This document shows positions 23,265 to 43,323 of a stretch of DNA of 64,000 bases, piece after piece (the stretch's first letter is position 1; every line of letters starts with the position of its first letter). Made by a program: the position numbers and the translations under genes. This DNA is from Candidatus Dadabacteria bacterium UBA1144 (GTDB lineage Bacteria; Desulfobacterota_D; UBA1144). The notes below the pieces were generated by a model. The model worked only from the letters and a program-made list of their open reading frames with translations, was not told the origin of the DNA and did not search any database. The DNA lies in NCBI GenBank assembly GCA_002311855.1, contig DCAB01000012.1:196112-260111 (forward strand), written 5' to 3'.

Positions 23265-23326
23265 CTTAATCTAATAAGAATACGCTTTATTAATGTTAAC
23301 AACTAAAATTATATTAAATTTTTTTT

Positions 23327-23355
23327 TTGCGATATACTAGTCACTCTGCTATAAT
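23327..23355 (+). promoter_or_regulatory. sigma70-type promoter TTGCGA-17 bp-TATAAT upstream of the acyl-CoA dehydrogenase operon
   Basis: -35 at 23327-23332 and -10 at 23350-23355 with exact 17-bp spacing; a GGGAGGG RBS lies 7 nt before the ATG at 23400. Confidence 0.5.
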
Positions 23356-23399
23356 ACTTTGGTTTAATTACCCCCAATCACCACCTGGGAGGGCAACTA

Positions 23400-24545
23400 A
23401 TGGGTCTATGCTTTGATTTTTCTGAAGAACAAAATATGATGCGTGATGCAATTAAAACATTTTGCAAGGAAGAAGTTGAACCTCTCGTTGAAAATGCAGA
23501 AAAACAAGAATCTTTTCCTATCGAGTTGTATCCCAAGATGGCAGAGATGGGCTTATTAGGAATATGTTTCGATGAAAAATATGGTGGCTTGTCTCTTGAT
23601 AAGGTTACAGAGTGTATATTAGCCGAAGAATTGGGCAGAACATGCGCTGGGATAGCAAAAGGCGTAAATGCCCACGTTGACTTAGCATGCTTGCCCCTCT
23701 CTAAGTTTGGAACCGAGGAACAAAAAGAAAAGTATTTGGTCCCCTCAATATCCGGAGAACTGATTGGTGCACTCGCAATAACTGAACCAAATGCCGGTTC
23801 TGACGCAAGAGCAATAAAAACAAGTGCTACACAAGAAAAAGATAAGTGGATTTTAAATGGAACAAAGACATGGATTACAAATGGAGTAATTTGTAATTAT
23901 GTAGTTGTTGCAGCATATACAAACAAAGAAGATAGAAAAAATGGTATTAGTATTTTTCTAGTTGACAAGGATACTCCGGGGTTTTTAGTTTCAAGAAAAA
24001 TTGAAAAATTAGGACATAGGTCATCAGATGTAGCTGAATTGGTATTCGAAAATTGCGAACTTCCCAAAGATGCTCTTCTTGGAGGAGAAGAAGGAAAATT
24101 TCAAGCATTAATGGAGACATTGATAGCTGCAAGAATTTCACATTCCATAAAGAGCGTTGGCCTTGCAACTGCTGCATTTGAATATGCTTTAAGCTACTCA
24201 AAAGAAAGAGAAGCTTTTGGAAGAAAAATTAATAAGTTTCAAGGAATAAGTTTCAAATTAGCCCAGATGGCAACAAAAATTGAAACCGCAAGATTGCTTG
24301 GATATAAGGCCGCATGGCTCTACGATCAAGGTAGGCCTTGCGTTAAAGAGGCATCAATGGCCAAGCTTTACTCAGCCGAAGTGGTACAGTGGTGCGCCAC
24401 TGAAGGGGTTCAGGTTTTAGGTGGTTACGGATATGCAACTGAATATGCAGCTGAGAGATTTTATAGAGATGCCAAACTGGCATCCATCACTGAGGGCACA
24501 TCCGAGATTCAACAGATTATTATTGCTAGGGAGCTTGGAATTTAA
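23400..24545 (+). CDS. acyl-CoA dehydrogenase
   Basis: 381 aa with ACAD N, middle and C domains, a C-terminal catalytic-Glu region (ASITEGTSEIQQIIIAR) and a FAD site. Confidence 0.9.
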   Translation: MGLCFDFSEEQNMMRDAIKTFCKEEVEPLVENAEKQESFPIELYPKMAEMGLLGICFDEKYGGLSLDKVTECILAEELGRTCAGIAKGVNAHVDLACLPLSKFGTEEQKEKYLVPSISGELIGALAITEPNAGSDARAIKTSATQEKDKWILNGTKTWITNGVICNYVVVAAYTNKEDRKNGISIFLVDKDTPGFLVSRKIEKLGHRSSDVAELVFENCELPKDALLGGEEGKFQALMETLIAARISHSIKSVGLATAAFEYALSYSKEREAFGRKINKFQGISFKLAQMATKIETARLLGYKAAWLYDQGRPCVKEASMAKLYSAEVVQWCATEGVQVLGGYGYATEYAAERFYRDAKLASITEGTSEIQQIIIARELGI

Positions 24546-24591
24546 ATTATCTTTGTTAAGCTAAAAATAGAAAAGCAAAAGGAGATTTACA

Positions 24592-25803
24592 ATGGGAACA
24601 CAGATACCAAATGTTGATGACACTAGGGAATTACTTAAAAAAAATCAGATTGGGATTGTAGGAATAGGTGAAACAGAACAAGGAAAAATTCCAGGAAAAA
24701 GTTCTTTTGATTTTCTCTCCCATGCATCAAAGTTAGCAATAGAAGATGCCGGGATTCTCAAATCTGACGTGGATGGAATTATAACAGCCTTTTCTTTGGT
24801 TGAAGAAACTTTTATGCATTGTACAACTTTTGCAGACTACATAGGAATCAATCCTAAGTATTTTGAATCCATTGCTATAGGTGGGGCTACTGCTGTATGG
24901 ATGACAGCTGCGGCTGCGATGGCTATCAATTCTGGCCAAGCCGAAGTCGTCTTGTGTGCAAGAGGAGACAACACCCTTTCCGGAATTTCTTCTGCAGGAA
25001 TGATTGCCTTAATTAGAGAAATGTGTCATGGAGAATTTGAATATCCATTTGGTTTAACAACACCAGGGGGCTATGCTTTGCTGGCGCAAAGATATCTTTA
25101 CGAAACTAAAGGAAAGAGGGAACATTTGCACTCCGTTGCTGTAACAATGCGCCAACATGCCAAATTAAAGGAAAATGCTATGAATAAAGATGATTTATCT
25201 TTGGATGATATTTTAAACACAAGACTATTAGCTTCACCTCTAACAAAATATGATTGCTCAATTGTTACTGATGGGGGTGCTGCTTTTATCGTTACAACAA
25301 AGGCAAAAGCCAAAGAGCTTGGGATAAAAAGGGATCCCGTATATTTGCATGGAATGGGGCAAGGCTTTTCGCACCAATACTTAACCTCATGCGCAGATCT
25401 GAATCAAATTTATGGGGCAATAGAAACATCCGGAGAGAAAGCATTTAAAACAGCCGGCATGACAAATCAAAACGTAGACGTAACGTTTCTTTATGATTGC
25501 TTCACCATTACAACCCTACTAGAACTTGAAGGTCTTGGAATCGTTCCTAGGGGGCATGCGGGTGCTGCTGCACTTGAAGGAAGGCTCCACAAAGATGCGG
25601 ACATACCCCTGAACACTCATGGTGGACTGCTTTCGCAAGCTCACCTTGGAGCTATGCACCATGTTGTTGAAGCAGTTTTACAATTAAGGGGAGAAGCTGG
25701 GGAACGGCAAGTAAAGAGCCCTAGTACAGCCCTGGTTCACGGAAATGGAGGCATAGTTTCAGCGCATAGCACCATTCTTTTAGGGAACGAGCCACTAAGT
25801 TAA
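24592..25803 (+). CDS. thiolase-like protein of the SCP-x / lipid-transfer-protein (Ltp2) type
   Basis: 403 aa; thiolase fold lacking the classic biosynthetic-thiolase N-terminal motif, resembling non-specific lipid-transfer/DUF35-partner thiolases; followed by a DUF35 gene. Confidence 0.8.
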   Translation: MGTQIPNVDDTRELLKKNQIGIVGIGETEQGKIPGKSSFDFLSHASKLAIEDAGILKSDVDGIITAFSLVEETFMHCTTFADYIGINPKYFESIAIGGATAVWMTAAAAMAINSGQAEVVLCARGDNTLSGISSAGMIALIREMCHGEFEYPFGLTTPGGYALLAQRYLYETKGKREHLHSVAVTMRQHAKLKENAMNKDDLSLDDILNTRLLASPLTKYDCSIVTDGGAAFIVTTKAKAKELGIKRDPVYLHGMGQGFSHQYLTSCADLNQIYGAIETSGEKAFKTAGMTNQNVDVTFLYDCFTITTLLELEGLGIVPRGHAGAAALEGRLHKDADIPLNTHGGLLSQAHLGAMHHVVEAVLQLRGEAGERQVKSPSTALVHGNGGIVSAHSTILLGNEPLS

Positions 25804-25823
25804 TATTTCATAGGAGCTATAAA

Positions 25824-26249
25824 ATGTCAGAAGAGAAAATAGAATATCAAAAACCACTTCCTGATTTTAGACCTGAAACAAAACCATTTTGGGATGGAAC
25901 AAAGCAGCATAAATTGTTGTTGCCAAAATGCAAAGAAACAGGAAAGGTTTTTTTCTATCCAAGGGCTATTAGTCCCTTTCCTGAATCTGTTAACAGAGAT
26001 TTTGAATGGGTTGAATCAACAGGGAAGGGTAAAGTATGGACCTATTCTGTTCACTATATGGGACCAACAAGGGCCTACAAAGGTGAGGTTTACGTGGTAG
26101 CGCTCATTGAACTTCACGATGGAGTCAAGATGATGTCAAACATAGTAGAATGTGATCCAGAAAGTGTAACAATAGGAATGGAAGTAGAAGTAGTTTTTGA
26201 GGACGCGACAGAAGAAGTTACTTTTGCAAAGTTTAAACCAGTAAAGTAA
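25824..26249 (+). CDS. DUF35 OB-fold protein (ChsH2 C-terminal-like), rubredoxin cysteines absent
   Basis: 141 aa showing the expected DUF35 order of a short ribbon region followed by an OB fold (VWTYSVHYMG, VALIELHDGVKMMSNIVE). The N-terminal region has a single Cys instead of a Cys4 knuckle. Confidence 0.7.
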   Translation: MSEEKIEYQKPLPDFRPETKPFWDGTKQHKLLLPKCKETGKVFFYPRAISPFPESVNRDFEWVESTGKGKVWTYSVHYMGPTRAYKGEVYVVALIELHDGVKMMSNIVECDPESVTIGMEVEVVFEDATEEVTFAKFKPVK

Positions 26250-26259
26250 GGGGAAAACA

Positions 26260-26706
26260 ATGGATGACAAATTATTTTATGAAGATGTTGAAGATGGGGC
26301 GGAACATGAATCAAGTGGAAGAACCGTAACTGAGGCAGATGTAGTAAATTTTGCTGGGCTTTCCGCAGACTTTAACAATATGCATATCGATGAGGAGTTT
26401 GCTAAAAACACAGTCTTTAAAACCAGAGTTGCTCATGGGATGTGTGTATTATCAATAGCTACCGGGCTTTGGTTTACGATGCCAAGGTTAGCGACAGTTG
26501 CATTCATGGGATTGCAGGATTGGAGATTTTCTGGTGCTGTTAAGCCGGGAGATACAGTTAAAATAACCCGCAAACTGGTGGAAAAGAAAGAACACAAAAG
26601 GCCCAATATGGGATTTTTAAACTGGGAAGTCAACGTAGTTAATCAGACGGGGGATGTGGTTCAAAAGGGTATCTGGGTCATATTGGTGCAACGAAAAAAT
26701 GCTTAA
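26260..26706 (+). CDS. MaoC-like (R)-specific enoyl-CoA hydratase (hot-dog fold)
   Basis: 148 aa with VTEADVVNFAGLSADFNNMHIDEEFAKNTVFKTRVAHGM. Confidence 0.8.
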   Translation: MDDKLFYEDVEDGAEHESSGRTVTEADVVNFAGLSADFNNMHIDEEFAKNTVFKTRVAHGMCVLSIATGLWFTMPRLATVAFMGLQDWRFSGAVKPGDTVKITRKLVEKKEHKRPNMGFLNWEVNVVNQTGDVVQKGIWVILVQRKNA

Positions 26707-26849
26707 TGATAGTTTTCCCATATTATAATAAATCTAATGATTTAAATAAGTTAGGTGTAATCTACCTCCCTTTTTTTCTAAAAAAGTGTTGACTTTACTA
26801 AAGTAACTATGTTAAAAAGGTTAATAACCTTATAAAAGGAGGTAGGTAT

Positions 26850-27344
26850 ATGTTAGGATATGTACTTTTACTTGTAGGTTTCGTATTCTTTTGCAACGGT
26901 ATGACACTGTTGGGCAAGACTGGCGGAAAAGAAGTCGGTATGCTTAACGGTGCTGTAGCTATTCTAATTCTAGTCGCTGCATTTACGGGAGCTGGGCTTG
27001 GTCCAGATGGTGCAGCAACAACCGCACTTGTTTCCGTTTTTGCTTTGATTTACGTCATGGCATTTGCTGTTTTCACGCTAGGACATGATGGTAAAGGCCT
27101 TGGCTGGTATTGTCTTTTCGCTACCATAGTTTTCTTATGGTACGGGCAATTCTTCCTAAGTGTTGGAGCAATGGAATTAGGCCTGTTTAACATTGCATGG
27201 GCTGTCCTTACTCTTGTTGCATTCTTAGTTCTTGCACAAGGTAAAGCACTTGGAACTCTGTTAGCATATTTATTTATTGCAGAATCATTTGTAACACTAT
27301 TGATTCCTGGAATGAACATGCTTACAAAAGGGGTCCTTTTCTAA
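26850..27344 (+). CDS. AmiS/UreI-family channel (putative small amide/urea transporter)
   Basis: 164 aa, 6 predicted TM segments; the N-terminus MLGYVLLLVGFVFFCNGMTLLGK...GMLNGAVAILILV closely resembles UreI/AmiS N-termini. A strong RBS AAAGGAGG precedes the ATG. Confidence 0.7.
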   Translation: MLGYVLLLVGFVFFCNGMTLLGKTGGKEVGMLNGAVAILILVAAFTGAGLGPDGAATTALVSVFALIYVMAFAVFTLGHDGKGLGWYCLFATIVFLWYGQFFLSVGAMELGLFNIAWAVLTLVAFLVLAQGKALGTLLAYLFIAESFVTLLIPGMNMLTKGVLF

Positions 27345-27377
27345 AAGAAAGGAAACTTACTATAAAATTTATATGAG

Positions 27378-27409
27378 GGGCCAGTTTACTAACTGGCCCT
27401 TTTCTTTTT
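27378..27409 (+). terminator. rho-independent terminator after the AmiS/UreI-like gene
   Basis: GGGCCAGT-ttacta-ACTGGCCC followed by TTTTCTTTTT. Confidence 0.65.
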
Positions 27410-27525
27410 AATCTTACTGACAATTAGAAGTTGATATTAGTTCTTATGAAAGAGAATGTTCTTACCGATCCCGATTGTTAGTCTCCGGTTTTCAACTTTT
27501 AAGGGACCAAATATCTAGGAAGTGG

Positions 27526-28983
27526 TTATTTTTTCCCATACCATTTAGGCGAGGATCCACCCGTGAATATGCTTACATTTTTTATTCTTAAGTATTCGTC
27601 TATTCCTTCCAAACCTAATTCCTTCCCAACGCCGCTTTGTTTGAACCCACCATAAGTTGTTTCAGGGACAATTCCACCATAGGTGTTAATCCACAAATAT
27701 CCAGCGTCAATTCGTTTTGACACTCTTATTGCTCTGGAAATATCTTGAGTCCATATTCCTCCAGCCAAACCATAATCAGTATCATTAGCTAAATTAATCG
27801 CTTCGTCCTCATCATCAAAAGGTATCATAGCCACAACGGGGCCAAAAACTTCCTCTTTGAATAAGATGTTTTTGTTAGAATTAATTTCGATTAGGGTAGG
27901 TAAAAAATAGTAGCCCTTTAATTTTTTATTTTCCTCCCCCCCAAACAAAACTTTTCCGCCTTCTCTGATTCCAGCTTCAACATAGTGATGCACTTTATCA
28001 AAATGAGTCTTAGACACTAAAGATCCTATTTCTGTTTTTTTATTTTTTGGATCACCTTGGACAATCTGTGCTATTTTTTCAACAAATTTTTTCTTAAATT
28101 TTTTATAAATTTTTCTATTCACGATTAATCTCGTTACCGCAGTACAATTTTCCCCCTGATTAAAAAATCCTCCCCTAAGATTTGCCTCTAAACATGATTC
28201 GATATCTGCGTCTTCAAAGATGATATTTGGGGCTTTCCCTCCTAGCTCCAAAGAAAGCCTAGAAAGGTTTGCTGAACTTTCCTGCACTATTAATTTGCCA
28301 ACAGGTGTTGAGCCTGTAAAAGAAATTTTTGAAACAAGGCGGTTTTTAACGAGTGCGGTTCCAGCATCTTCTCCTTTTCCAGGACAGACATTGATAACCC
28401 CTTTTGGGACCCCACATTCTTCGCAGATTTTTGCTAGTTCAAGTGTTCCGTGTGGCGTAAGCTCAGAAGGTTTAACCACCATTGTGCAGCCCGCTGCGAG
28501 AGCCGGGGCCATTTTCCATGACGCCAGCAGCATAGGGAAGTTCCAGGGAAGTATTAGAGCAACAATCCCTACTGGTTCTTTGATGGTCAATGAAAGAAGA
28601 TCCTTGTTCAATACTTGTGAGTCACCATGAATCTTAGATGCAAGGCCTGCATAATATTCAAAGGTTCTAGCAACTCCGGCTATTTCTACCAATATGCTTT
28701 CATTGATTGGTTTTCCCGTTTCTTCGGTATTAATCAATCCTAAGTAGTCGGCTCGCTCTCTTATTTTCTCGGCTATTTTAAATAATATATTTCCGCGAAT
28801 GCTTCCTGGAGTTACGGACCAGGCATCAAATGCCCTGTGAGCAGATTGACAGGCTCTATCAATTTCATTTTTTGAAGCTAACGAAATTTCTTCAAGGGGT
28901 TCAAGGGTTGCTGGATTTTCCCTGATATATGAATTCTCTAACTCTACAAGCTCTCCATCTATTAGAGCAACGGACTTGCGCAT
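27526..28983 (-). CDS. NAD(P)-dependent aldehyde dehydrogenase
   Basis: 485 aa with the catalytic Cys region (QGENCTA), a Glu active site (LELGGKAP) and a Rossmann-type GSTPVGK motif. Confidence 0.9.
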   Translation of the reverse strand: MRKSVALIDGELVELENSYIRENPATLEPLEEISLASKNEIDRACQSAHRAFDAWSVTPGSIRGNILFKIAEKIRERADYLGLINTEETGKPINESILVEIAGVARTFEYYAGLASKIHGDSQVLNKDLLSLTIKEPVGIVALILPWNFPMLLASWKMAPALAAGCTMVVKPSELTPHGTLELAKICEECGVPKGVINVCPGKGEDAGTALVKNRLVSKISFTGSTPVGKLIVQESSANLSRLSLELGGKAPNIIFEDADIESCLEANLRGGFFNQGENCTAVTRLIVNRKIYKKFKKKFVEKIAQIVQGDPKNKKTEIGSLVSKTHFDKVHHYVEAGIREGGKVLFGGEENKKLKGYYFLPTLIEINSNKNILFKEEVFGPVVAMIPFDDEDEAINLANDTDYGLAGGIWTQDISRAIRVSKRIDAGYLWINTYGGIVPETTYGGFKQSGVGKELGLEGIDEYLRIKNVSIFTGGSSPKWYGKK

Positions 28984-29250
28984 TGAATTAATTTATCATG
29001 GAATGTGGTTTTAAGAAACCATTACTCTATCGATTGAGTTGCAGGGGCAAGGGAAAGTATTATAACAGTTCTTTTGTAGGTAGAGAAAACCTATTCAACT
29101 AGTTCACCATTCTCCCATGTTCCAGGCTCAAACTTGCAATCTGGACTAAGCCCCTTGTGTCCTGGGACAAGTTCACAAATTGTTCACAGGTGATTTTCAA
29201 CCTTAGAAATGCATTAAAAATAAAAAGACTTAAATTGGGTATTCGCTTAG

Positions 29251-29283
29251 GGAAGAAAAGGGCCCTTCTCGTAAGAAGAGCCC
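29251..29283 (-). terminator. rho-independent terminator after the ADC-like gene pair
   Basis: Minus-strand hairpin GGGCTCTTC-ttacga-GAAGGGCCC (29260-29283) followed by TTTTCTTCC (29251-29259), 20-40 bp past the stop at 29302. Confidence 0.55.
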
Positions 29284-29301
29284 TAAAATTACCAGTTGTT
29301 C

Positions 29302-30276
29302 TTAGGCACCTGGATACATTGGGATCATGAATCTGTGTCTCATTGTATATTTAAATGGTGTTGAGAACAATAATGCTCCGAAATCTTTTTCAGGATCTCT
29401 TTCAACTGTTCTCTCCCATACAATTGACGCTGGTGGAATGATTAAGTTAAATGTGAACGAAATCAAGCCGTGAACTGTTACGTTGCCTAATTGACCTCCC
29501 ATGAAGTCAAAAGGCGTCCCAGCCATATACCATGATCTTACATCTTCTCCAGTACATGTTCTTACAGAGCTAGGATCCAATTGGAATCTGTGTCCTGTTC
29601 CGAACTGCGGTGGCAACTCAGAACCAAGATGTGTAACTTGGTGTCTGGTGCGTGTTATATCTGGATAAGTTGTAATTCTGTAATTTAATCTACCCCAGTC
29701 TGTTTTACCATAGAATGTTGGTTTGTGTGGGGTTGGTTTGTCTGAATAACGACCATTTGCTGAATGGAATACATAACCTCTTCTTTCCATTGTCATATTG
29801 AAGTAGTTATCGTTTGTTCCATGCTCAAAAGCTGCAATATAAGCGGCTTTTTTAGGGAATCCGAATGGTTCTCTACCAGCAAAAATTGGTGAGTCGTTTG
29901 AAAGGTACATATAAGGGTAATATCCACCCTTCGTTACGTGCCCGTCTTGACCTTTAACCGTTGAAGAGGCTGTTACGCCAAACTCCATGTATGGTCCAAG
30001 CATTGTGTTTCTGTGTATAACATACCAGAACTCAAGGATTGGATCATGAAGCTCAACCGGGTCAGGTATGATAGCATTCAAGTTAGCTTCGTCCGCTTCA
30101 ACTACAAAAGCCATCCAACGGCTTTCTGTATAAGTCAAAGGGATGATATCGTAGTCGAAAACAGGATCGGCAACACCCTGAGAGACAATATGAATTCTAT
30201 CTCTATCAAGTGGTAGCGGTGGAACTTCGCCTTCTTCTAACCACGGATAACTATATTCGTTTGCTTGTTTTCCCAT
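29302..30276 (-). CDS. acetoacetate decarboxylase-like (ADC superfamily) protein, paralog 1
   Basis: 324 aa. The core GYYPYMYLSNDSPIFAGREPFGFPKK aligns with the Clostridium ADC Schiff-base lysine region (YLHMMYLDNEPAIAVGRELSAYPKK), with about 90 aa of extra N-terminal sequence. Confidence 0.7.
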   Translation of the reverse strand: MGKQANEYSYPWLEEGEVPPLPLDRDRIHIVSQGVADPVFDYDIIPLTYTESRWMAFVVEADEANLNAIIPDPVELHDPILEFWYVIHRNTMLGPYMEFGVTASSTVKGQDGHVTKGGYYPYMYLSNDSPIFAGREPFGFPKKAAYIAAFEHGTNDNYFNMTMERRGYVFHSANGRYSDKPTPHKPTFYGKTDWGRLNYRITTYPDITRTRHQVTHLGSELPPQFGTGHRFQLDPSSVRTCTGEDVRSWYMAGTPFDFMGGQLGNVTVHGLISFTFNLIIPPASIVWERTVERDPEKDFGALLFSTPFKYTMRHRFMIPMYPGA

Positions 30277-30307
30277 GATTTATTTCCTCCTTAATTAATT
30301 GAGTTCC

Positions 30308-31315
30308 TTACGCACCTTGGTGAATTGGGAACTGTTGTCTTAAACCATACTGATATGGTGTTGCGTAGCCTCTGTAGCTGGCTGGTCTTTCATATGTTTC
30401 AGTCCAGACAACTTCAGGAACTGGGATGATTAGGTCAAAAGTAAATGAAATTAAACCTTTAATAGCATTAACTTTTATCTCTGCACCCATATTGTCAAAT
30501 GGTGTTGCTTGTGCGAACCAATTTATGGCATCGCCAGAAGCAGTTCTTGTGTGCTCAGGTTTGACTTGGAATCTGTGTCCTTCGATGTTAAACGCCGCTG
30601 GAAGTTTAGATGGTAGATATGTTAACTGCCATTCTGAACTTGCTACGTCACAACGTGTGTCAACCTTCATATTGAATTTGCCCCAGTCAGTTTTTCCATA
30701 GAAAAATGGTGGTTTGACGTCGGCATCATCATATTTGCCTTGCTGTGCGGTTAAAAGGTAACCATTTCTTGTCATTGAAAAGCCAAAATAGTCGTTTCCT
30801 TTTTCGCCACCATGCTCGGTGATTCTGATATAGGACATTTTTTTAGGGAATCCTAAAACACGGCCTGCATCAACAGGTGCATCACCTGTTAGGTACATAT
30901 ATGGATAGTAACCAGCTTTCCATGTGTTACCTTTTGGATCTGTATGCGTTGCGGAGATTGTTACTCCGAACTCAATATATGGTCCTAGCATTGTGTTATA
31001 GTGCATTACGTACCAATACTCGACAAGTTCTGCATCGTCACCGTCCCATATTGTTAATGGTGGGTTTGGACATAGTCTCTGTCTCGTATCAGCAGGTACA
31101 TCAATAACAAACGCGCTCCATCTTGAATCACTATAAGTTAGAGGAAGGACATCAATATCCCATAGAGGATCGGCAGGGTTGCCGACAATCCATGTATTAA
31201 TGTCTCTTTCCATCGGACTTGCAGGTATTTCGTCTGGAGCCATTTTCCAGTACTTATCGTCTACATTAAGATGACTTGGCATCGTTATAGACCTCCTTAG
31301 TTGGATTTTGCGCAA
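30308..31315 (-). CDS. acetoacetate decarboxylase-like (ADC superfamily) protein, paralog 2
   Basis: 335 aa collinear with paralog 1 throughout (LPLTYSDSRW, NTMLGPYIEFGVT, GYYPYMYLTGDAPVDAGRVLGFPKK, KGLISFTFDLIIP); both lysines of the FPKK motif are conserved. Confidence 0.7.
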   Translation of the reverse strand: MRKIQLRRSITMPSHLNVDDKYWKMAPDEIPASPMERDINTWIVGNPADPLWDIDVLPLTYSDSRWSAFVIDVPADTRQRLCPNPPLTIWDGDDAELVEYWYVMHYNTMLGPYIEFGVTISATHTDPKGNTWKAGYYPYMYLTGDAPVDAGRVLGFPKKMSYIRITEHGGEKGNDYFGFSMTRNGYLLTAQQGKYDDADVKPPFFYGKTDWGKFNMKVDTRCDVASSEWQLTYLPSKLPAAFNIEGHRFQVKPEHTRTASGDAINWFAQATPFDNMGAEIKVNAIKGLISFTFDLIIPVPEVVWTETYERPASYRGYATPYQYGLRQQFPIHQGA

Positions 31316-31514
31316 TTAAAAATAAGATACAGTAGTCAAGAAGCCCACTTGTAGCCTCTCCACACCCCGTTATTACAATTAAAGCAAATACAGCAGAAAT
31401 AGTCAACGAGTTTTTGTTAAAATTGGGTCAAGCGATCCAATTACTTCAAAATGTAGTCTTTTGTGATTTAGAAGACGTATTAAATTTAATAAAAGCACCG
31501 CAGGAGCTCCTCTC

Positions 31515-32294
31515 TTATAGTCCCATTTTTTTTTCCAGTAGCTCCGCTACCAAAACAGCCCTCTCGTTAATCAGCAAGGTGGCTCTTGAGTCAAAAGGGG
31601 TGTCCATTAAATCAATTATTACAAGCTCAGAGCCTGTTTTTAGAGCAACGTCGGGCAGGCTGTTTGCTGGTGAAACTTGCAAAGAAGAACCAACGACAAT
31701 CATAAGAGTGGTGTCTTTACACTTATCAACCGAGGAGTCCCATGGCACTTTTGGTAGGGCTTCTCCAAAAAATACAGCAGTAGGTTTTATCAAGCCTTGG
31801 CATGGCTGTCCTTCAAATTCTTCACAAATCGGGGGGTTTTCTCCTTTTTGGACTCTTTGTATGATATCGTCCATTGAATAAATTTGACCACACTGTAAAC
31901 AAGAAGCTCTTCTAAGAGATCCATGTAATTCATGGACATCGGAACTCCCAGCTTCCAAATGAAGTCCGTCGACATTTTGAGTTATTACACCTTTAATTAA
32001 ATCCTCTTTCTCTAGTTTGGCTACAAGCAAGTGGGCTTTGTTCGGTTTTGCAGATGACCTAATTGGATACATTTCAAGCGCGTAATTAAAATATTGCGTT
32101 GGATCGCTTAGGAATCCCTGTATTGATACTATTGACGAATCATATTTCTCCCATGATCCAGAGCCAGGAGTACGGTAATCAGGTATTCCTGAGTCGGTAC
32201 TAATGCCAGCTCCAGTAAACACGACGGCGCTTCTATTCCCCAGAATCATATCTGCTAATTTTTGAATTTGTTCGTCTAGCGTCATATTAAACAC
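31515..32294 (-). CDS. cobB: NAD-dependent protein deacylase (sirtuin, CobB-like)
   Basis: 259 aa with GAGISTDSGIPDYR, a Cys4 Zn module (CLQCG...CEEFEGQPC) and HG..R. Confidence 0.85.
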   Translation of the reverse strand: MFNMTLDEQIQKLADMILGNRSAVVFTGAGISTDSGIPDYRTPGSGSWEKYDSSIVSIQGFLSDPTQYFNYALEMYPIRSSAKPNKAHLLVAKLEKEDLIKGVITQNVDGLHLEAGSSDVHELHGSLRRASCLQCGQIYSMDDIIQRVQKGENPPICEEFEGQPCQGLIKPTAVFFGEALPKVPWDSSVDKCKDTTLMIVVGSSLQVSPANSLPDVALKTGSELVIIDLMDTPFDSRATLLINERAVLVAELLEKKMGL

Positions 32295-32332
32295 AGGAAG
32301 GATTATTTAAAATCCTTCCTGATAATCAATTT

Positions 32333-33148
32333 TTAGCCGTTTTCGTCGGTTCTTGTTGGCAAACCCATTTGTTCGGCAGCAGCATTGATGGCAGCTAATC
32401 TCTCTGGTGTAAGAGCAGACTCTGGTTGTAAAACACCTAGTTTTGTCAGTTCCTCGTCTACAGCAGGATCAGCAATGGCTGGTGTACCAAACTTTTCTTG
32501 ATAGATAATGTCCCCATAGGCTCTTCTTGGTCGCATTCCCATAGATTCAACGGTTTCTCCGGGATAACCAATGGCCATTGCCCATACGAACTGAGCAGTC
32601 TCTGGAAATCCTAGCAACTCACCAATTTTTGGTGGAACCCCCGCATAAGCACAACAACCTAGCCCTAGAGCTGTAGCCATTAGCTGAGCTTGAGCCATAG
32701 CCATTCCAGTTTCACAACTAAGCATATAGCTGACGACTGGATCAGGAAAGGTTGTAAGTCTTGGTAGAGTTGAATTTTCAATGTTGTCCAAGCTCCAACC
32801 ATGACTCGGGTTGATAGCGCCAAGTTTAAAAATCTTTGGGAGCATCTCTGGAAGGCCTTCGAACCACCATTTTCTGTCCAAAGCAAAAACTAAGCTTACC
32901 GGTGCCATTTGAGCCATCGGAATATTAAAACTAGATACTATTTTAGTAAAAGCATCCTTTGTTTCCTGCTTTGACACGATGGTAATTGTTACAGCATTAG
33001 CGTTTCCCATATGTGAAGCGGTTCTGGCAGCTTGACAAATAGCTTGTATCTTTTCCGGTTCTACCGGCCTATTGGGATCATAAAATCTACATGAACGTCT
33101 ATCCCCAATAACGTTCATAAAATCTTTTCCTTGATAATCTAAACCCAT
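32333..33148 (-). CDS. nitroreductase-family flavoprotein
   Basis: 271 aa with an N-terminal RRSCRFY FMN-binding signature and C-terminal LGLGCCAYAG; longer than classic NfsA/B. Confidence 0.6.
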   Translation of the reverse strand: MGLDYQGKDFMNVIGDRRSCRFYDPNRPVEPEKIQAICQAARTASHMGNANAVTITIVSKQETKDAFTKIVSSFNIPMAQMAPVSLVFALDRKWWFEGLPEMLPKIFKLGAINPSHGWSLDNIENSTLPRLTTFPDPVVSYMLSCETGMAMAQAQLMATALGLGCCAYAGVPPKIGELLGFPETAQFVWAMAIGYPGETVESMGMRPRRAYGDIIYQEKFGTPAIADPAVDEELTKLGVLQPESALTPERLAAINAAAEQMGLPTRTDENG

Positions 33149-33306
33149 TTTATTCCTCCTTTTTTGAATAATGTAATAGAAAAACTTCTACTTCTATAGT
33201 ACAGAATTTGGCATTTTTTTGCAATAACTTTAATAATTTGCTGGTAAAGGGGGTCTAAAAATTCCCGGTTTGCTGAAATAGGTCTAAAAACTCTTGTTTT
33301 GTTTCG

Positions 33307-33729
33307 TTATTTAATAGCTCTAAATTTGTAAGAATAGATATCGCTTCCGTCTTTCGCTTTTCTGACAATTCCTACAATTGTCTCAACTTCCATCTCTAGT
33401 TTTAAGTCGTTTTCTAAGTCGTCAGCCTCTACTTGGGCCATAACCCTTACTTCTTGTTCGGGAAAATCGACAAGGCCTAAACCAAAAGGGACCGGGAAAT
33501 CAGGAAGGCTCCTTCGGACAATAGTAAAAGAATGTAGAATTCCCCTTCTTGGAAGAAGAGTAGGTTCAACATCATCTTGGAAGCTCACGGGATCTGCTAA
33601 ATATGCAGGGAAGGTCCAATTCCCTGAGGACTTAGACTTACCCGCTATCAATCTTGGTTCGGGGTCTTCTGTAAATAAATCCGCGTGCAAAACTTTTCTG
33701 TCTTCAGGTTCACTCATAACAATCTCCAC
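33307..33729 (-). CDS. DUF35 OB-fold protein (second copy), no ribbon cysteines
   Basis: 140 aa, placed immediately downstream of a thiolase-like gene as in Ltp2/ChsH2-type pairs, with a DUF35-like OB-fold C-terminal half. Confidence 0.65.
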   Translation of the reverse strand: MEIVMSEPEDRKVLHADLFTEDPEPRLIAGKSKSSGNWTFPAYLADPVSFQDDVEPTLLPRRGILHSFTIVRRSLPDFPVPFGLGLVDFPEQEVRVMAQVEADDLENDLKLEMEVETIVGIVRKAKDGSDIYSYKFRAIK

Positions 33730-33742
33730 ATAACTGTAGTTG

Positions 33743-34909
33743 TTATTTGCCCAATATGCTTACCACACAGGTAATTCCGTCCATAGCAGGTTGGGCACCC
33801 CCCATAGTCTCAATCAAGCCAATTTTAGGGTTGGGCACTTGATATCCTGTTGCCTCTCCTCTTAATTGATTAACAATCTCAACAGTTTGAAGAATTCCGG
33901 TTGCACCAACTGGGTGGCCCCGTGAAAGGAGTCCTCCACTTGGATTGATTGCAATGTCACCATCATAATTAGATTTTTCTTCTTCTATTAGTGTCGCGCC
34001 TTCGCCTTTTTTTGCAAATCCCAGTGCTTCTGCGACTATCAGCTCTGCAATAGCAAATGCGTCATGAATTTCTGCAATGTCTATATCTTTGGGTCCAAGC
34101 CCTGCGTGTTCATATGCCATACCTGAGGTTCTTGTCACATTTTCTGAGGGATCACACGTCAGACCAGTAGCTGAGGAATAGCCCCCTGATTGGGCAGCGA
34201 TTCCAAGCACTTTAATGGGTAGCCTGTCTTTGTCCCGTTTGATTTTGTTTAGCATGTCACCGCCAACCAAAACTGTTGCCGCAGCAGAGTCTCCAATGGG
34301 ACAACACATGCTTCTTGTCAAGGGGTCGGCTATCATAGGATCCGCCATTACTTGTTCGACTGTAGTTTCTTTTCTAAACTGTGCTATTGGATTCATCGCG
34401 GCGTGTTTTCTGCTTTTCACAACTACCTTAGCCAAAGTCTCAGCGGAAACGCCATACTCGTCCATGTATCTTCTTGCCCTCATCGCATACAAACCAGGCA
34501 TGCTCATGCCCAATGCAACTTCAATGTCATCTTCCTCAAGAGGAAGTGGGCCACCTGACATAATTTTGGATAGGTTTTCTACCCCCCATGCCAAGGCTAA
34601 ATTATTTTGGCCATAAGCTATAGACCTCCACGCTTCCCAAAAAGATAACGTGCCGCTTCCACAGGCACCTTCAACGTTAATCACGGGTTGGCCGACTATT
34701 CCAATATCCTTAAGTGTTCTTTGACCAACGCCCATTCCTTGATAAACGTGGCCGCAGAATGCTATTTCGATATCTCTTGGGTGTATACCAGCGTCTTTAA
34801 TCGCCGCCCAAGTCACCTCTCTTCCAAGAACATGTGCGGCTTTCGTTGGGAACTTGCCACACGGATGTTGTCCCACGCCAATGATATAAACATCTCTTAA
34901 GCTAGCCAT
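33743..34909 (-). CDS. thiolase-like protein of the SCP-x/Ltp type (second copy)
   Basis: 388 aa with N-terminal VYIIGVGQHPCGKF and an active-site Cys region (EGACGSGTLSF); paired with a DUF35 gene. Confidence 0.8.
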   Translation of the reverse strand: MASLRDVYIIGVGQHPCGKFPTKAAHVLGREVTWAAIKDAGIHPRDIEIAFCGHVYQGMGVGQRTLKDIGIVGQPVINVEGACGSGTLSFWEAWRSIAYGQNNLALAWGVENLSKIMSGGPLPLEEDDIEVALGMSMPGLYAMRARRYMDEYGVSAETLAKVVVKSRKHAAMNPIAQFRKETTVEQVMADPMIADPLTRSMCCPIGDSAAATVLVGGDMLNKIKRDKDRLPIKVLGIAAQSGGYSSATGLTCDPSENVTRTSGMAYEHAGLGPKDIDIAEIHDAFAIAELIVAEALGFAKKGEGATLIEEEKSNYDGDIAINPSGGLLSRGHPVGATGILQTVEIVNQLRGEATGYQVPNPKIGLIETMGGAQPAMDGITCVVSILGK

Positions 34910-34994
34910 TTACAAAACCTCCCTTGAGTTTCAAATCCAATAAAAGTAGAAAGAAAATTGTAAATTGAAAAACGTAAAAAGGCAATAAGAACCC

Positions 34995-35810
34995 CTATGC
35001 CCAATTAAGTGCTTTGTATAAAGCATTCTTTATTATAGGAAAAATTTTCTGTGTTCTTGTGGGTCTAATTAAATTATCTATGTTCACGACCTCTACAATA
35101 CCTTTTGTTGCATTTGTAATGAATATAGCCTCAGGAAACAAAATTGACCCAAGCTCATATTTCCCCTCCAAAATGTTTAGTCCTTTTTCGTTGGATATAT
35201 CAATTATCAAGCTCCTTGTTATTCCGGGAAGTAGGCCGCAAGACAAAGATGGGGTAAACAGGTTGGAGCCTTTTATCCAGAATATGTTTCCTGATGTGGT
35301 TTCGGAGACTAAATTGTCTGGATTAAGAAAGAGAGCATCATCGAAACCTTTTTTGATTGCACTTCTTCTCTCTAAAACAGAAATAAGATAATTGGTTGTT
35401 TTGTGTTTAACCAAGTCATGAGAACAGTTTCTTGTTGCTTGTGCAATGGTTAATGAAATCTCATTTTTTACTGAATCATCCTCTTTAATTGAGACCATAA
35501 CAATTGTTTTGGTGGATTTCCCAAAATACACCCCCTCCCCAGATCCTAACAACGCGATTTTTATTACCAAGTCTTTAGAGTGGTGTCCTTTTACAAAAGT
35601 TTCAACAAGATTCTGTATATAAAAATCACCAGGATACTTAAGCAAAAGAAATTCCGCGGAGTGTTTAAGTCGCGCAAGGTGTCTATCAAAAAAAACCGGC
35701 AATTTCTCCTTGTACCTAAAGGTTTCAAACACTCCTTCGCCAAAGAGAAAAGCTCTATTAATCTCGCTTGCGTTTTTCAATTGCTTATCAAAATAAATTG
35801 ATTCTTTCAT
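34995..35810 (-). CDS. pabC: aminodeoxychorismate lyase / class IV aminotransferase
   Basis: 271 aa fold-type IV PLP enzyme (FGEGVFET, a nearby K) placed directly after pabB with a 4-nt overlap. Confidence 0.7.
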   Translation of the reverse strand: MKESIYFDKQLKNASEINRAFLFGEGVFETFRYKEKLPVFFDRHLARLKHSAEFLLLKYPGDFYIQNLVETFVKGHHSKDLVIKIALLGSGEGVYFGKSTKTIVMVSIKEDDSVKNEISLTIAQATRNCSHDLVKHKTTNYLISVLERRSAIKKGFDDALFLNPDNLVSETTSGNIFWIKGSNLFTPSLSCGLLPGITRSLIIDISNEKGLNILEGKYELGSILFPEAIFITNATKGIVEVVNIDNLIRPTRTQKIFPIIKNALYKALNWA

Positions 35811-36943
35811 CGTTTCTCTAGCGCCAACTTAAATGCCCTTGCTTTTAAGATGGTTTCTGAATTTTCTTTTTTTGGAATCGAATCCCAAACAATTCCCGCC
35901 CCAGTAAAAAATTTTGAATTTTTTTTCTCAATTTTACAAATTCTTATCCCTACGGAAAAACAAAAATCACCATTGGGTTCAAATAGGCCTATCGCACCAC
36001 AGTATGGTCCCCTATGATGGTTTTCTATCTCCTTTATAATTTCAATAGCTCTTGATTTCGGAGCTCCAGTTACGGACCCGGGAGGCATAATGTTGGTAAA
36101 AATTTTTTCATTGTTTGTATCTTTTTTTAAAATCCCTTCTATTTCTGATTCTAGTTGGTAAAGTGTTGAATATCTCTTTTTTCTAAACAATTTCTTTGAT
36201 ACAACAGAGCCCGTTCGGCAAATTCGTGATAAATCATTTCGCATCAAATCTACTATCATTAAATTTTCTGCCAACTCTTTTTTATCATAATTAATTTTGT
36301 CCCGAGTTCCAAGTATGGTAGGAGAGGTTCCTTTAATCGGTTTTGTGGTTATTTTGTTTGCTGATTTTTCTATAAAAAGTTCCATTGAGCCACTTATTAT
36401 TGTATGGTCAGGGAACTCTAAAAACGAAGCATAGTCTACCGGTTGTTGAGAATAGTATTTCATAAATAATTTGTAGGGGTTTTTTGGTGAATCAAAGCTA
36501 AATTCTCTAGTTAAATTTATTTGGTAGATGTCTCCTTCTTTGATATATCGTTTGGCTCTAACAATTCCATTTAGGAATTTTTTATCGGGCTGGGTTCTGT
36601 TGAGCTTGTTCGGTTTGTTTGAAACAGAAGGAGTGACAAGTCTTTTCCCGAGAGTGTCTTGATCGTAAATGTTAAAAATGGCCTTATAATGAGGGGGTTT
36701 GACTTTTTTTTCCAAAAACTCAAATGAAAAATATCCGCACACATAATGACCTTTTTTTAAAATTGTCTCTATCGATTTTATGAAAGATTTTTTCTTGATT
36801 ACCTGTTTTTTTCCTTTATAAATAAGCCTAATCCCGCTCGAATTCTCATAAATACACCCTACAGGGTTAGAAAATTTTATATTAGACCATTTGGTTTTTT
36901 TAAGTTGCCAGCTTGCGTTTCTAGACCTAAGATGTGTCGTCAT
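35807..36943 (-). CDS. pabB: aminodeoxychorismate synthase component I (short chorismate-binding enzyme)
   Basis: 378 aa with only the chorismate-binding C-terminal domain (PPGSVTGAPK, GPYCGAIG, TGAGIVWDS); followed by pabC. Confidence 0.7.
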   Translation of the reverse strand: MTTHLRSRNASWQLKKTKWSNIKFSNPVGCIYENSSGIRLIYKGKKQVIKKKSFIKSIETILKKGHYVCGYFSFEFLEKKVKPPHYKAIFNIYDQDTLGKRLVTPSVSNKPNKLNRTQPDKKFLNGIVRAKRYIKEGDIYQINLTREFSFDSPKNPYKLFMKYYSQQPVDYASFLEFPDHTIISGSMELFIEKSANKITTKPIKGTSPTILGTRDKINYDKKELAENLMIVDLMRNDLSRICRTGSVVSKKLFRKKRYSTLYQLESEIEGILKKDTNNEKIFTNIMPPGSVTGAPKSRAIEIIKEIENHHRGPYCGAIGLFEPNGDFCFSVGIRICKIEKKNSKFFTGAGIVWDSIPKKENSETILKARAFKLALEKR

Positions 36944-38981
36944 TTTTTTCTAATTCTGATGAATCGACCGTTAGTTTTTCAAAATTGGAGTTGTTAACCG
37001 GTAAATCAAGAGAATCTCTTAATATTTCGGCAACATCTTTAATTTTGATTGTTTCGTTGTCATGATGTTTTGCGGCATCCTCGAACATGGTGCTACAAAA
37101 AGGACAGGCAACAGCAGCGGTTTTGACTCCGAGGTTTTGAATCTCATCAAACCTGTTCCAGCTAACTCTCGGTGCCTCTTCCTCCATCCAGACCTTTCCT
37201 CCCCCAGCTCCACAGCAAAAGCTGTTTTCCCTACTCCTGTCTAGCTCCTTAATTTCTAATCCGGGTATTGAGGTTAGTATTTCTCTGGGCTCATCAAAAA
37301 TCCTATTGTGCCTCCCTAAATAGCAAGGGTCATGATAAGTTATTTCTTCGTCAATATTTTTTGTGGGAGAGAGTTTTCCTTCTTTGATTAAATTATTTAG
37401 AAACTCGGAATGGCTTACGACCTCAACATCAGAGCCAAAATCAGGGTATTCGTTTTTTAATGTATTAAAACAGTGTGGGCAGTTTGCCACAACCTTTTTT
37501 ACGTTAAACCTTTTCATGGTTTCTATGTTTGTCATCGCTAATTCTTGATAAAGAGCCTCATCGCCCAATCTTCTCGCGGGGTCTCCAGAGCAAGTTTCGC
37601 TGGGTCCCATAATAGCAAATTTTACGCCCGCCTCTTTAAGTAGTTGGGCAATCGTTGATGCAACTTCCTGTCCACGAGGGTCATATGCGCCAAAACAACC
37701 AGTCCAAAAAATTACGTCATAGCTTTCCGCGCTGTCACCTCCTCCGTTTCCAAGAACGGGTGTTCCTTCGGCTTTGGCCCAAGGCGCCCTATCAGATGCC
37801 TCAAACCCCCATGGGTTGCCATAACTTTGAAGTTTTTGAAGTGTCCTAACTGATGGTCCGGTAAGTTTGCCTTCCATGGTAAGGTAGCGCCTCATCTCAA
37901 GTATTTTCCCCATCTGATCAATCAACAGAGGGCACTGTTCAACACATGCGCCACATGTTGTACAAGCATAAAGCTCCTCGGGTGTCACCCATTTTTGGTC
38001 AGGCAAATACTCGGTTTTCATTTGTTCTTTGTTCGCATTTTCGGTAGCAAAATGTCTTAATTTGATTACAATATCTCGGGGAGAAAGGGGCTTGTCGGTT
38101 GCCCAGGCAGGGCAAACGTCGGTGCATCTCCCACACTCAGTACACGTGTATGCATCCAGGACGTCTTTCCAGCTAAAGTCCTCAAATTTCCCGCTTCCAA
38201 AATGTTCTATGTCTTCAGGAATGTTTTCAAAATCTAATTTGGTCATTTTTCCTGTGGGTTCAAGATTTTGAAAAAATACATTAGGAACAGCTGTAAGAAC
38301 ATGGCTGTGTTTTGAATAAGGCAGATAGTTTAAAAAAGCTAAAAGTATACATACGTGGAACCACCAAAAAAACTCTGCTGTAAATGCAATCGTTGTAAGG
38401 TTCGCGTTGGCCAGAAAGAAAGAGGCCCATATAGATGAGATTGGAAGCCAGGACTCCCTCTCTGTTCCCATTGCAATCTCCGATGCTCTAAATCCAAAAT
38501 CAGAAACCATTAAGGCAAAAATTAGGCCCAAAATTACCGCCGCATCGATACTGTTTACCTCTCTTCTTTTGCCGCTCGGGATAACGGTTCTGTTAAGGAC
38601 TCCCATAACAAGTGCAATGAGCACCAAGGCTTCAACTATGTCTAGTATGAGCAAAAAAACTCCCTGTGCGTTTCCTCCTAAAAAGGAGAACATCTCGAAG
38701 TTGGGAACAAACCCCAAAATCAATACCTCCACGGATCCAAATGTAATAATCATAAATCCCCAAAAAAGCATAAAATGCTCAATACCAGCCCAGGCATAGT
38801 TCTTTAAGATTCTTTTTTGACCAAAAACATAAATAAAGATTCCCTTTGTTCTGTCCATCATGCGATCCATTCTGAACGAGGGCCTTTTTGCAGAGAACAT
38901 TATGCGTAAAAAACCATAAACATTTCTTAGTAAAAGCAAAACTGCAAAAAGGATTAAAAGGGATAAAATTGCTGCCTTCAT
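36927..38981 (-). CDS. membrane-anchored Fe-S oxidoreductase: NarI-like multi-TM N-terminal domain fused to an HdrD/GlpC-like domain (2 x 4Fe-4S ferredoxin motifs + 2 CCG domains); EtfD/DsrMK-fusion-like
   Basis: 684 aa with about 230 aa of TM helices, then CTECGRCTDVCP and CTTCGACVEQCP, then cysteine-rich CCG repeats (CFGAYDPRG, CPHCFNTL, DPCYLGRHN, CCGAGGG, CPFCSTM). Confidence 0.75.
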   Translation of the reverse strand: MKAAILSLLILFAVLLLLRNVYGFLRIMFSAKRPSFRMDRMMDRTKGIFIYVFGQKRILKNYAWAGIEHFMLFWGFMIITFGSVEVLILGFVPNFEMFSFLGGNAQGVFLLILDIVEALVLIALVMGVLNRTVIPSGKRREVNSIDAAVILGLIFALMVSDFGFRASEIAMGTERESWLPISSIWASFFLANANLTTIAFTAEFFWWFHVCILLAFLNYLPYSKHSHVLTAVPNVFFQNLEPTGKMTKLDFENIPEDIEHFGSGKFEDFSWKDVLDAYTCTECGRCTDVCPAWATDKPLSPRDIVIKLRHFATENANKEQMKTEYLPDQKWVTPEELYACTTCGACVEQCPLLIDQMGKILEMRRYLTMEGKLTGPSVRTLQKLQSYGNPWGFEASDRAPWAKAEGTPVLGNGGGDSAESYDVIFWTGCFGAYDPRGQEVASTIAQLLKEAGVKFAIMGPSETCSGDPARRLGDEALYQELAMTNIETMKRFNVKKVVANCPHCFNTLKNEYPDFGSDVEVVSHSEFLNNLIKEGKLSPTKNIDEEITYHDPCYLGRHNRIFDEPREILTSIPGLEIKELDRSRENSFCCGAGGGKVWMEEEAPRVSWNRFDEIQNLGVKTAAVACPFCSTMFEDAAKHHDNETIKIKDVAEILRDSLDLPVNNSNFEKLTVDSSELEKNDDTS

Positions 38982-43198: not shown

Positions 43199-43323
43199 AC
43201 AGTAGTAGTAGTATGTATGTTAATATGTTAAGTAACAAAAAAAAGGGGAAAAACAAACGAGAAACAGCCCACATCTTTTAACGGTAATCAACAAAAAAAA
43301 CAACCACCAAAAAAAAGTCAACA

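Follow-up and report, generated by a model that had tools for sequence, protein, structure and literature searches.

The window analysed here, a stretch of 64,000 nucleotides of contig DCAB01000012.1 from Candidatus Dadabacteria bacterium UBA1144, carries on its minus strand two adjacent genes whose products resemble acetoacetate decarboxylase (ADC), and which are termed ADC_A and ADC_B. An earlier note on this DNA had described two collinear, alignable ADC-like paralogs, and this was borne out, the two proteins being 44% identical across 316 residues (E 7e-88). The pair, its signals and its candidate catalytic lysines are located as follows.

30308..31282, minus strand: ADC_A, A-type long-form ADC-like protein, 324 aa, signature AGR-VLGFPKK
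29302..30276, minus strand: ADC_B, B-type long-form ADC-like protein, 324 aa, signature AGREPFGFPKK
31292..31297, minus strand: AGGAGG ribosome-binding site of ADC_A, read from the sequence
30286-30291, minus strand: AGGAGG ribosome-binding site of ADC_B, read from the sequence
31378..31406, minus strand: possible, tentative sigma-70 promoter of the pair (TTGACT, 17 nt, TTTAAT), read from the sequence
29259..29284, minus strand: intrinsic-terminator-like hairpin 3′ of the ADC_B stop (11-pair stem with 6 G-C pairs, loop of 4, tail TTTCTT)
30844-30842, minus strand: codon of K147, candidate Schiff-base lysine of ADC_A, with K148 adjoining
29853-29851, minus strand: codon of K142, candidate Schiff-base lysine of ADC_B, with K143 adjoining

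The open reading frame of ADC_A as first called (30308-31315), collinear with the adjoining ADC_B, begins at a TTG at position 31315 and gives the 335 residues originally ascribed to this protein. We displaced this start in favour of the ATG at 31282, because an AGGAGG lies 9 nt ahead of it and because ADC_A orthologues with 98% and 93% identity have 324 aa as well; the 324 aa given for ADC_B stood. The spacer between the two genes is 31 nt. A consensus promoter scan did not report the TTGACT/TTTAAT candidate, in which position 2 of the -10 hexamer is other than A, and an Rfam scan of positions 23000-35500 returned no riboswitch and no leader. The terminator placed after the pair was recovered as a terminator-like hairpin with a T-rich tail (29284-29259 in the direction of transcription).

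Both proteins scored above the Pfam gathering score of the ADC family PF06314 (29.8 bits), ADC_B with 88.6 bits (E 5.8e-25) and ADC_A with 54.3 bits (E 1.8e-14), which was the first check that the earlier note had proposed. When the PDB was searched with phmmer, ADC_B matched the true ADCs 3bgt, 3bh2 and 3c8w (E 1e-8 to 1e-9) and no aldolase-dehydratase at E <= 1; the best match of ADC_A, barring one to Nup133 at E 0.00047, was Sbi00515 at E 0.1. The AlphaFold2 models (pLDDT 77.9 for ADC_B and 79.6 for ADC_A) were compared with the PDB by Foldseek, and with the two models all 24 matches at E <= 0.001 were ADC-family entries. True ADCs headed these structure matches, with TM-scores of 0.74-0.80 on the target (3bgt, 0.80/0.79), followed by MppR, Sbi00515, Swit_4259 and 3cmb, and the fold similarity to the MppR/Sbi00515-type aldolase-dehydratases amounted to TM-scores of 0.64-0.71. 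The ADC fold and the position of the lysine in FPKK were hence as anticipated; the name double-psi beta-barrel, which had been given to this fold, had to be dropped, the ADC fold being a different one, a beta-cone.

The lysines of the FPKK stretch in both proteins correspond to K115/K116 of the Clostridium acetobutylicum enzyme (CaADC, 3bh2), and align likewise with C. violaceum 3bgt, by phmmer and by profile-profile comparison, in agreement with the Schiff-base lysine pair claimed at the outset. For the latter comparison the long-form family was aligned by hhalign with 40 canonical ADC-like sequences, CaADC serving as reference (residues 23-123 of it confirmed by phmmer), and a probability of 99.9 over 230 columns was obtained. 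K115/K116 map to K142/K143 of ADC_B, E76 maps to E98 (E104 in ADC_A), and R108/E109, which are invariant in the canonical set, map to R135/E136. The lysine pair and the Glu76 equivalent are invariant in 30-40 family members, and both paralogs retain them together with about 50 invariant positions. ADC_A lacks the loop glutamate (E109 in the canonical enzymes), and ADC_B keeps the GRE...FPKK loop. The active-site motif as written in the earlier note fits ADC_A, that of ADC_B being one residue longer (AGR-EPF-GFPKK). Family, fold, catalytic lysine and catalytic glutamate are established at this level.

The greater length of the two proteins had been attributed to about 90 additional N-terminal residues. 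Since residue 8 of CaADC aligns to residue 29 of ADC_B and residue 241 to residue 288 (hhalign), the surplus consists instead of about 21 N-terminal and about 36 C-terminal residues, together with internal insertions. Invariant residues (R25, D37, P38, D41 and D43 at one end; Y310, R313 and F316 at the other) fall within the low-confidence termini of the monomer models, which suggests that the conserved terminal arms may become ordered between subunits in an oligomer.

A search with the long-form family profile over 1.84 billion representative proteins retrieved only 26 proteins at E <= 1e-30, most of them fragments. Full-length long-form members scored 300-540 bits, and canonical ADCs stayed below 80 bits, matching only about profile positions 45-160. 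As judged from these profiles, the pair belongs to a discrete long-form subfamily that is sharply set off from canonical ADCs. Nothing on a long-form, paired ADC-like subfamily was found in the accessible literature and no characterised member was found, and we regard the pair as a new paired variant within a known superfamily.

Within the subfamily, A and B types could be told apart by nine columns, two indels included, that are conserved within a type and differ between types; among the type-specific positions are three extra conserved arginines of the B type (R166, R200 and R247). We fetched 92 loci and counted a pair wherever an A gene was followed by a B gene within 400 nt on the same strand. 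The A-then-B order was found in 74 pairs from these loci, which belong to Dadabacteria, Desulfofundulus-type Firmicutes and other metagenome bins, and most of the loci that had no such pair were contig ends. Furthermore, in several complete soil and freshwater Dadabacteria genomes the pair occurs twice, as a block of about 2.3 kb. In the four pairs of loci from complete genomes that were compared (L059/L060, L049/L050, L044/L045 and L074/L077), the two copies lie 100-150 kb apart and share 99.4-100% nucleotide identity, and the AmiS gene (about 0.6 kb), which encodes a putative channel described below, is duplicated alongside with copies that are 93-99% identical. That near-identical copies recur in several species suggests gene conversion or concerted evolution. 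Pairing is thus established as a regular feature, and the A/B pair looks like a functional unit, as the earlier note had supposed: its order is fixed in the 74 pairs, the 2.3-kb block is duplicated as one, and nine columns mark the types.

Between Dadabacteria and Firmicutes, A proteins are 52.7% identical to A and B proteins 52.2% identical to B, and the A-to-B values are 47.5-48.4%. Within Firmicute genomes A and B are 63% identical, and because of this a neighbour-joining tree groups the two together. We interpret the pattern as one ancient A/B duplication, probably followed in the Firmicutes by slower divergence or by gene conversion; the indels common to each type argue against independent duplications. 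A recent tandem duplication was rejected, the paralogs being only 44% identical and the two types recognisable across phyla.

The other genes of the cluster, and one gene beyond it, lie on both sides of the pair.

23400-24545, plus strand: acyl-CoA dehydrogenase (ACAD), short-chain/Bcd/AcrC-like
24592-25803, plus strand: Thl1, thiolase-like protein lacking the nucleophile cysteine
25824-26249, plus strand: DUF35_1
26260-26706, plus strand: MaoC hydratase
26850..27344, plus strand: AmiS/UreI-family channel, 164 aa (PF02293 at 90.9 bits)
27526..28983, minus strand: aldehyde dehydrogenase, 485 aa (PF00171 at 544 bits), an accessory cluster member
31515..32294, minus strand: Sir2-family NAD-dependent deacylase, directly upstream of the pair (PF02146 at 161 bits)
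32333..33148, minus strand: nitroreductase-family flavoprotein, 271 aa (PF00881), kept by the marine clade and by some of the others
33307-33729, minus strand: DUF35 partner of Thl2, BbsA-like OB fold
33743-34909, minus strand: Thl2, thiolase with the nucleophile cysteine (GACGSG), BbsB- and archaeal-thiolase-like
36927..38981, minus strand: membrane Fe-S/CCG oxidoreductase of 684 aa, placed two genes outside the cluster

Thl1 carries GGATAV at the position of the cysteine, and its best PDB matches were 4u4e and the retro-aldolase Ltp2 (6ok1), which lacks the cysteine too. Ltp2 has two catalytic tyrosines; in the alignment of Thl1 with 6ok1, the LYDCFT stretch of Thl1 retains the first of them and the second position is a histidine (AHLGAM). 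Judging from sequence, Thl1 is probably an aldolase rather than a thiolase. The aldehyde dehydrogenase lies, as had been noted, downstream of the pair on the same strand, beginning about 275 nt past the ADC_B terminator-like hairpin, and it reached none of the NCBIfam equivalog cut-offs. The significance attached to this vicinity was weakened, given that the gene stands behind the terminator and near the pair in only 21% of the loci surveyed below. Additional terminator-like hairpins were observed 3′ of AmiS (27375-27402, plus strand) and between the nitroreductase and Sir2 genes (32294-32321, minus strand), and because of them the cluster may be transcribed as several units. Sir2 recurs beside the pair in Dadabacteria and in the Desulfofundulus cluster (the window; L004, L005 and L087). 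In Desulfofundulus it comes after an AMP-forming ligase, whereas in Dadabacteria no ligase is nearby, and these ligase-free loci raise the idea that Sir2 might de-acylate the hyper-reactive catalytic lysine of the ADC pair.

Housekeeping genes border the cluster on both sides: mnmE stands to its left, and to its right are folate and aromatic amino-acid genes together with dnaN and dnaA. The last two adjoin at 42068-44760 (minus strand), the GC skew changes sign at about 40-42 kb and 48-50 kb, and a replication origin probably lies near 45 kb, given the adjacency of dnaN and dnaA. The G+C content steps up at about position 24000, from 30-33% over 1-24 kb to 37-41% over 24-64 kb. A mobile island was considered and found unsupported, the higher-GC stretch running for 40 kb through housekeeping genes that include dnaA and dnaN.

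The gene neighbourhood was also established across genomes, by recording the genes within 8 kb of the B gene in 80 genome loci. AmiS was the commonest neighbour (61%), followed by DUF35_1 (50%), Thl1 (49%), MaoC (46%), ACAD (34%), Sir2 (28%) and the aldehyde dehydrogenase (21%). The nearest loci come from marine metagenome-assembled genomes (MAGs) in which ADC_B is 84-91% identical at the amino-acid level and the gene order is kept; they are labelled Thermodesulfobacteriota or unclassified 'bacterium', and two others Spirochaetales and Nitrospinaceae. The next tier, at 72-77% identity, consists of MAGs labelled Candidatus Dadabacteria and Thermodesulfobacteriota, which makes a marine Dadabacterium the most likely source of the window. 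Near-identical clusters were also seen under the labels Spirochaetales, Nitrospinaceae, Ruegeria, Bathyarchaeota or Methanosuratincola (L007, L009, L034, L039 and L005). Since identities of 72-91% go along with a synteny identical to that of Dadabacteria, these odd labels probably reflect mistakes in binning or labelling and not gene transfer.

The Desulfofundulus-type loci have a different order, namely ACAD, a KASIII/HMGCS-like protein, thiolase, DUF35, DctQ, electron-transfer flavoprotein (ETF) beta, ETF alpha, in some cases the Fe-S/CCG protein, A and B. In one version the pair is followed on its 3′ side by an aminotransferase, DctP, a radical-SAM protein, an AMP-ligase and Sir2, and in the other two DUF2148 proteins come next, along with a sigma-54 activator that has a MimR_N domain. 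This enhancer-binding activator, which also has GAF and PAS domains (L088, 15631-17583; L091, 14384-16333), adjoins the two DUF2148 ferredoxin-domain proteins and a 430-aa protein that has no Pfam match. The Fe-S/CCG protein (Fer4 plus CCG, 678-681 aa) lies between the ETF genes and the pair in these two loci (L088, 7461-9497; L091, 6521-8566), and the protein at 36927-38981 of the window has the same domain make-up and is of similar length. The window protein could possibly serve as an ETF:quinone-type electron outlet for the ACAD, with an uncertain link to the cluster in the window because folate genes intervene. A minimal metagenomic locus (L092) holds a thiolase-like gene, DUF35, A and B, and two other metagenomic loci have the pair and none of these partners. 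In the L001 clade the gene immediately upstream of the pair encodes a 4HBT thioesterase; a small open reading frame at the corresponding place in L060 was tried as its counterpart and rejected, the two being unrelated.

In the reading that we tentatively favour, ADC_A and ADC_B would together make up a single hetero-oligomeric Schiff-base enzyme, each being one of its two subunit types, and this enzyme would be a decarboxylase of a beta-keto or beta-formyl acid; that the pair in some way makes or handles a small ketone or aldehyde is probable. K147 of ADC_A or K142 of ADC_B would form an imine with the carbonyl of the acid, E104 or E98, the Glu76 equivalents, would serve as acid/base, CO2 would depart, and the enamine would be protonated and hydrolysed, so that a small neutral ketone or aldehyde is released. 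ADC_B would be the likelier site for an anionic substrate, because it has the canonical GRE...FPKK loop and the three extra conserved arginines, the site of ADC_A being modified. The substrate might be supplied by the Thl2/DUF35 thiolase, as acetoacetyl-CoA and from it acetoacetate, or by a retro-aldol module of ACAD, MaoC and Thl1/DUF35, which could, for instance, convert glutaryl-CoA to malonate semialdehyde. Acetone or acetaldehyde, as the neutral product, would leave by way of the AmiS/UreI channel, or the aldehyde dehydrogenase would oxidise it. Acetone and acetaldehyde resemble urea and acetamide in shape, and the AmiS/UreI family is known for urea and short amides. The heteromer, the type of reaction, the substrate and the role of the channel are what we infer here.

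Several observations weigh against this reading. The NCBIfam model of acetoacetate decarboxylase (NF002614) has its cut-off at 150 bits; the two proteins reached 57.0 and 26.6 bits and matched its N-terminal half only. Arg29 and Glu61 are said, in the paper on the CaADC structure, to line the active site; R29 aligns to an invariant S52, with an invariant R53 next to it, and E61 aligns to F83 (hhalign) or W84 (phmmer), with an invariant Glu one to two positions earlier (E82). Therefore, the carboxylate site of true ADCs is not conserved in register, a register shift being possible in such an alignment. Owing to the sub-cut-off NCBIfam score and to R29 not being conserved in position, the members of the pair are, by their sequences, ADC-superfamily Schiff-base enzymes outside the true ADC equivalog (EC 4.1.1.4). 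In addition, the ADC_A model is about equally near to MppR/Sbi00515 and to true ADCs, no CoA-transferase that would release acetoacetate was found in the window, and acetone and acetaldehyde pass membranes in the absence of any channel. Finally, at four loci (L028, L029, L038 and L040) a B gene stands by itself, the 10 kb upstream of it holding no A gene, so that the heteromer may not be obligatory.

Some of these observations are shared with the main rival reading, which the earlier note had raised and which we consider unlikely, namely the chemistry of the MppR/Sbi00515/Swit_4259-type aldolase-dehydratases or hydratase-aldolases, in which the lysine would form its imine with a 2-oxo acid such as pyruvate. 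A 2-oxo-enoate would be hydrated and cleaved, or else built, with pyruvate and an aldehyde as the partners, and the aldehyde would be oxidised by the dehydrogenase encoded downstream of the pair. Both models matched MppR (4jm3), Sbi00515 (4zbo, 6eej) and Swit_4259 (5upb) at E values of about 1e-12 to 1e-14, that of ADC_A almost as well as it matched true ADCs, and the top sequence match of ADC_A, Nup133 aside, and the out-of-register R29 and E61 point in the same direction. An aminotransferase follows the pair in Desulfofundulus-type loci, which recalls MppQ, the protein that accompanies MppR in its pathway (PMC10367076). However, the sequence matches of ADC_B were to true ADCs only, the aldehyde dehydrogenase lies beyond a terminator and is seldom a neighbour, and it is enzymes of CoA esters and a small-neutral-molecule channel, rather than enzymes of 2-oxo acids, that most constantly accompany the pair.

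Whatever the chemistry, A and B could be separate homo-oligomers that catalyse consecutive or parallel reactions, or A could be a largely non-catalytic scaffold; we hold this, too, to be rather doubtful. The lone B genes are in line with it, as are the strong ribosome-binding site that each gene has of its own, the 31-nt spacer with no overlap, and the absence from ADC_A of the E109 glutamate, and the ADC-family enzymes known so far are homo-oligomers. Against it stand the strict co-inheritance, fixed order and co-duplication of the two genes, the Lys-Lys pair, E98/E104 and the invariant positions kept by both proteins, and the conserved terminal arms, which are disordered in the monomer models. 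At one of the lone-B loci (L028, 8980-13543), the gene was seen to be flanked by a TetR regulator and by a split methylmalonyl-CoA-mutase-like acyl-CoA mutase, made up of a 557-aa large subunit and a 136-aa B12-binding subunit.

A wider proposal, which we regard as quite improbable, takes the pair as the core of an undescribed route that would metabolise short branched acyl-CoA and ketones with neither biotin nor ATP and would be a core trait of Dadabacteria. The heteromeric ADC-like enzyme would then have two different active sites, and an AmiS/UreI-family channel would have been repurposed for acetone or acetaldehyde. The route would lead from isovaleryl-CoA through 3-methylcrotonyl-CoA and 3-hydroxyisovaleryl-CoA to acetone and acetyl-CoA, or from glutaryl-CoA through 3-hydroxyglutaryl-CoA and malonate semialdehyde to acetaldehyde.

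The opposite direction was weighed as well: acetone or another small ketone would enter by the AmiS/UreI-type channel, be held on the lysine as an imine or enamine, and be coupled either to CO2 or, by Thl1/DUF35, to acetyl-CoA, giving 3-hydroxyisovaleryl-CoA and, by MaoC, 3-methylcrotonyl-CoA, which would amount to an ATP-independent route of ketone assimilation. The channel is the commonest neighbour and is co-duplicated with the pair, and Firmicutes loci with the MimR_N sigma-54 activator have alcohol dehydrogenases nearby; MimR is the acetone-responsive regulator of mycobacterial mimABCD, and thiolase/DUF35 complexes channel unfavourable condensations, as in the archaeal thiolase/HMG-CoA synthase complex. 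Nevertheless, this direction is very improbable, for by established chemistry the aldol addition and the carboxylation of a ketone are thermodynamically uphill when no ATP is spent, the ACAD would have no role unless run as a reductase, and no ADC-like protein appears among those listed in proteomic work on bacteria that degrade acetone anaerobically (PMC8084838, PMC7888143). For this last reason the cluster was also rejected as an instance of the known 2-hydroxyisobutyryl-CoA route of anaerobic acetone degradation.

Only a handful of ADC-like superfamily members are characterised, each with a different chemistry (decarboxylase, cyclase, aldolase-dehydratase, hydratase-aldolase). The small Dadabacteria chromosomes that were sampled (about 1.4-2.4 Mb) have kept the pair, frequently as two copies, and the pair is linked with a channel for small neutral molecules and with an aldolase-like module of a cysteine-less thiolase and DUF35. 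Solving its function would give a role to a conserved gene set of an uncultured phylum, and could show how Dadabacteria make or use volatile ketones and aldehydes such as acetone, which bears on marine carbon cycling. Annotation as acetoacetate decarboxylase (adc) would overstate the acetone-forming potential of metagenomes. If true, the reverse branched-acyl-CoA/ketone route would be a new way of marine acetone assimilation, and interest in the cluster would be high only if it turned out to represent a new ketone or branched-acyl-CoA pathway.

Among known systems, the true ADCs (3bh2, 3bgt and the Legionella enzyme 3c8w) share with the pair the fold, K115/K116 and Glu76, and with ADC_B also the GRE...PKK loop, and they are its best sequence matches. 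They differ in being encoded by a single gene for about 245 aa, whereas the long-form proteins are an A/B pair of 324 aa each with terminal arms and insertions; the similarity is limited to the N-terminal half, and the NCBIfam score and the register of R29/E61 set the pair apart. MppR, Sbi00515 and Swit_4259 also have the ADC fold, with the catalytic lysine located in a loop of the FPKK type, and are non-canonical members of the family whose chemistry is other than decarboxylation (for MppR, PMC10367076). Unlike the pair, they are single genes for about 255-265 aa, located in contexts of antibiotic biosynthesis or aromatic degradation, and the sequence similarity to them is marginal for ADC_A and nil for ADC_B. 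The neighbouring genes resemble steroid side-chain-cleavage modules (Ltp2-ChsH2(DUF35)/ChsH1-H2 and Sal/Shy/Sad), which combine an ACAD, a MaoC protein, a cysteine-less thiolase-like protein and DUF35, sometimes with an aldehyde dehydrogenase. The differences are that here the ACAD is short-chain/Bcd-like, the proteins are small and stand-alone, the genomes are tiny, and one catalytic Tyr of Ltp2 appears replaced by His, and that those modules have no ADC partner. Double-ADC-domain fusions, found in metagenomes (P0173, 553 aa; P0232, 532 aa; P0241, 523 aa), likewise place two ADC domains side by side, in line with a joint action of A and B, but these are canonical-length domains in one chain and fall outside the long-form subfamily.

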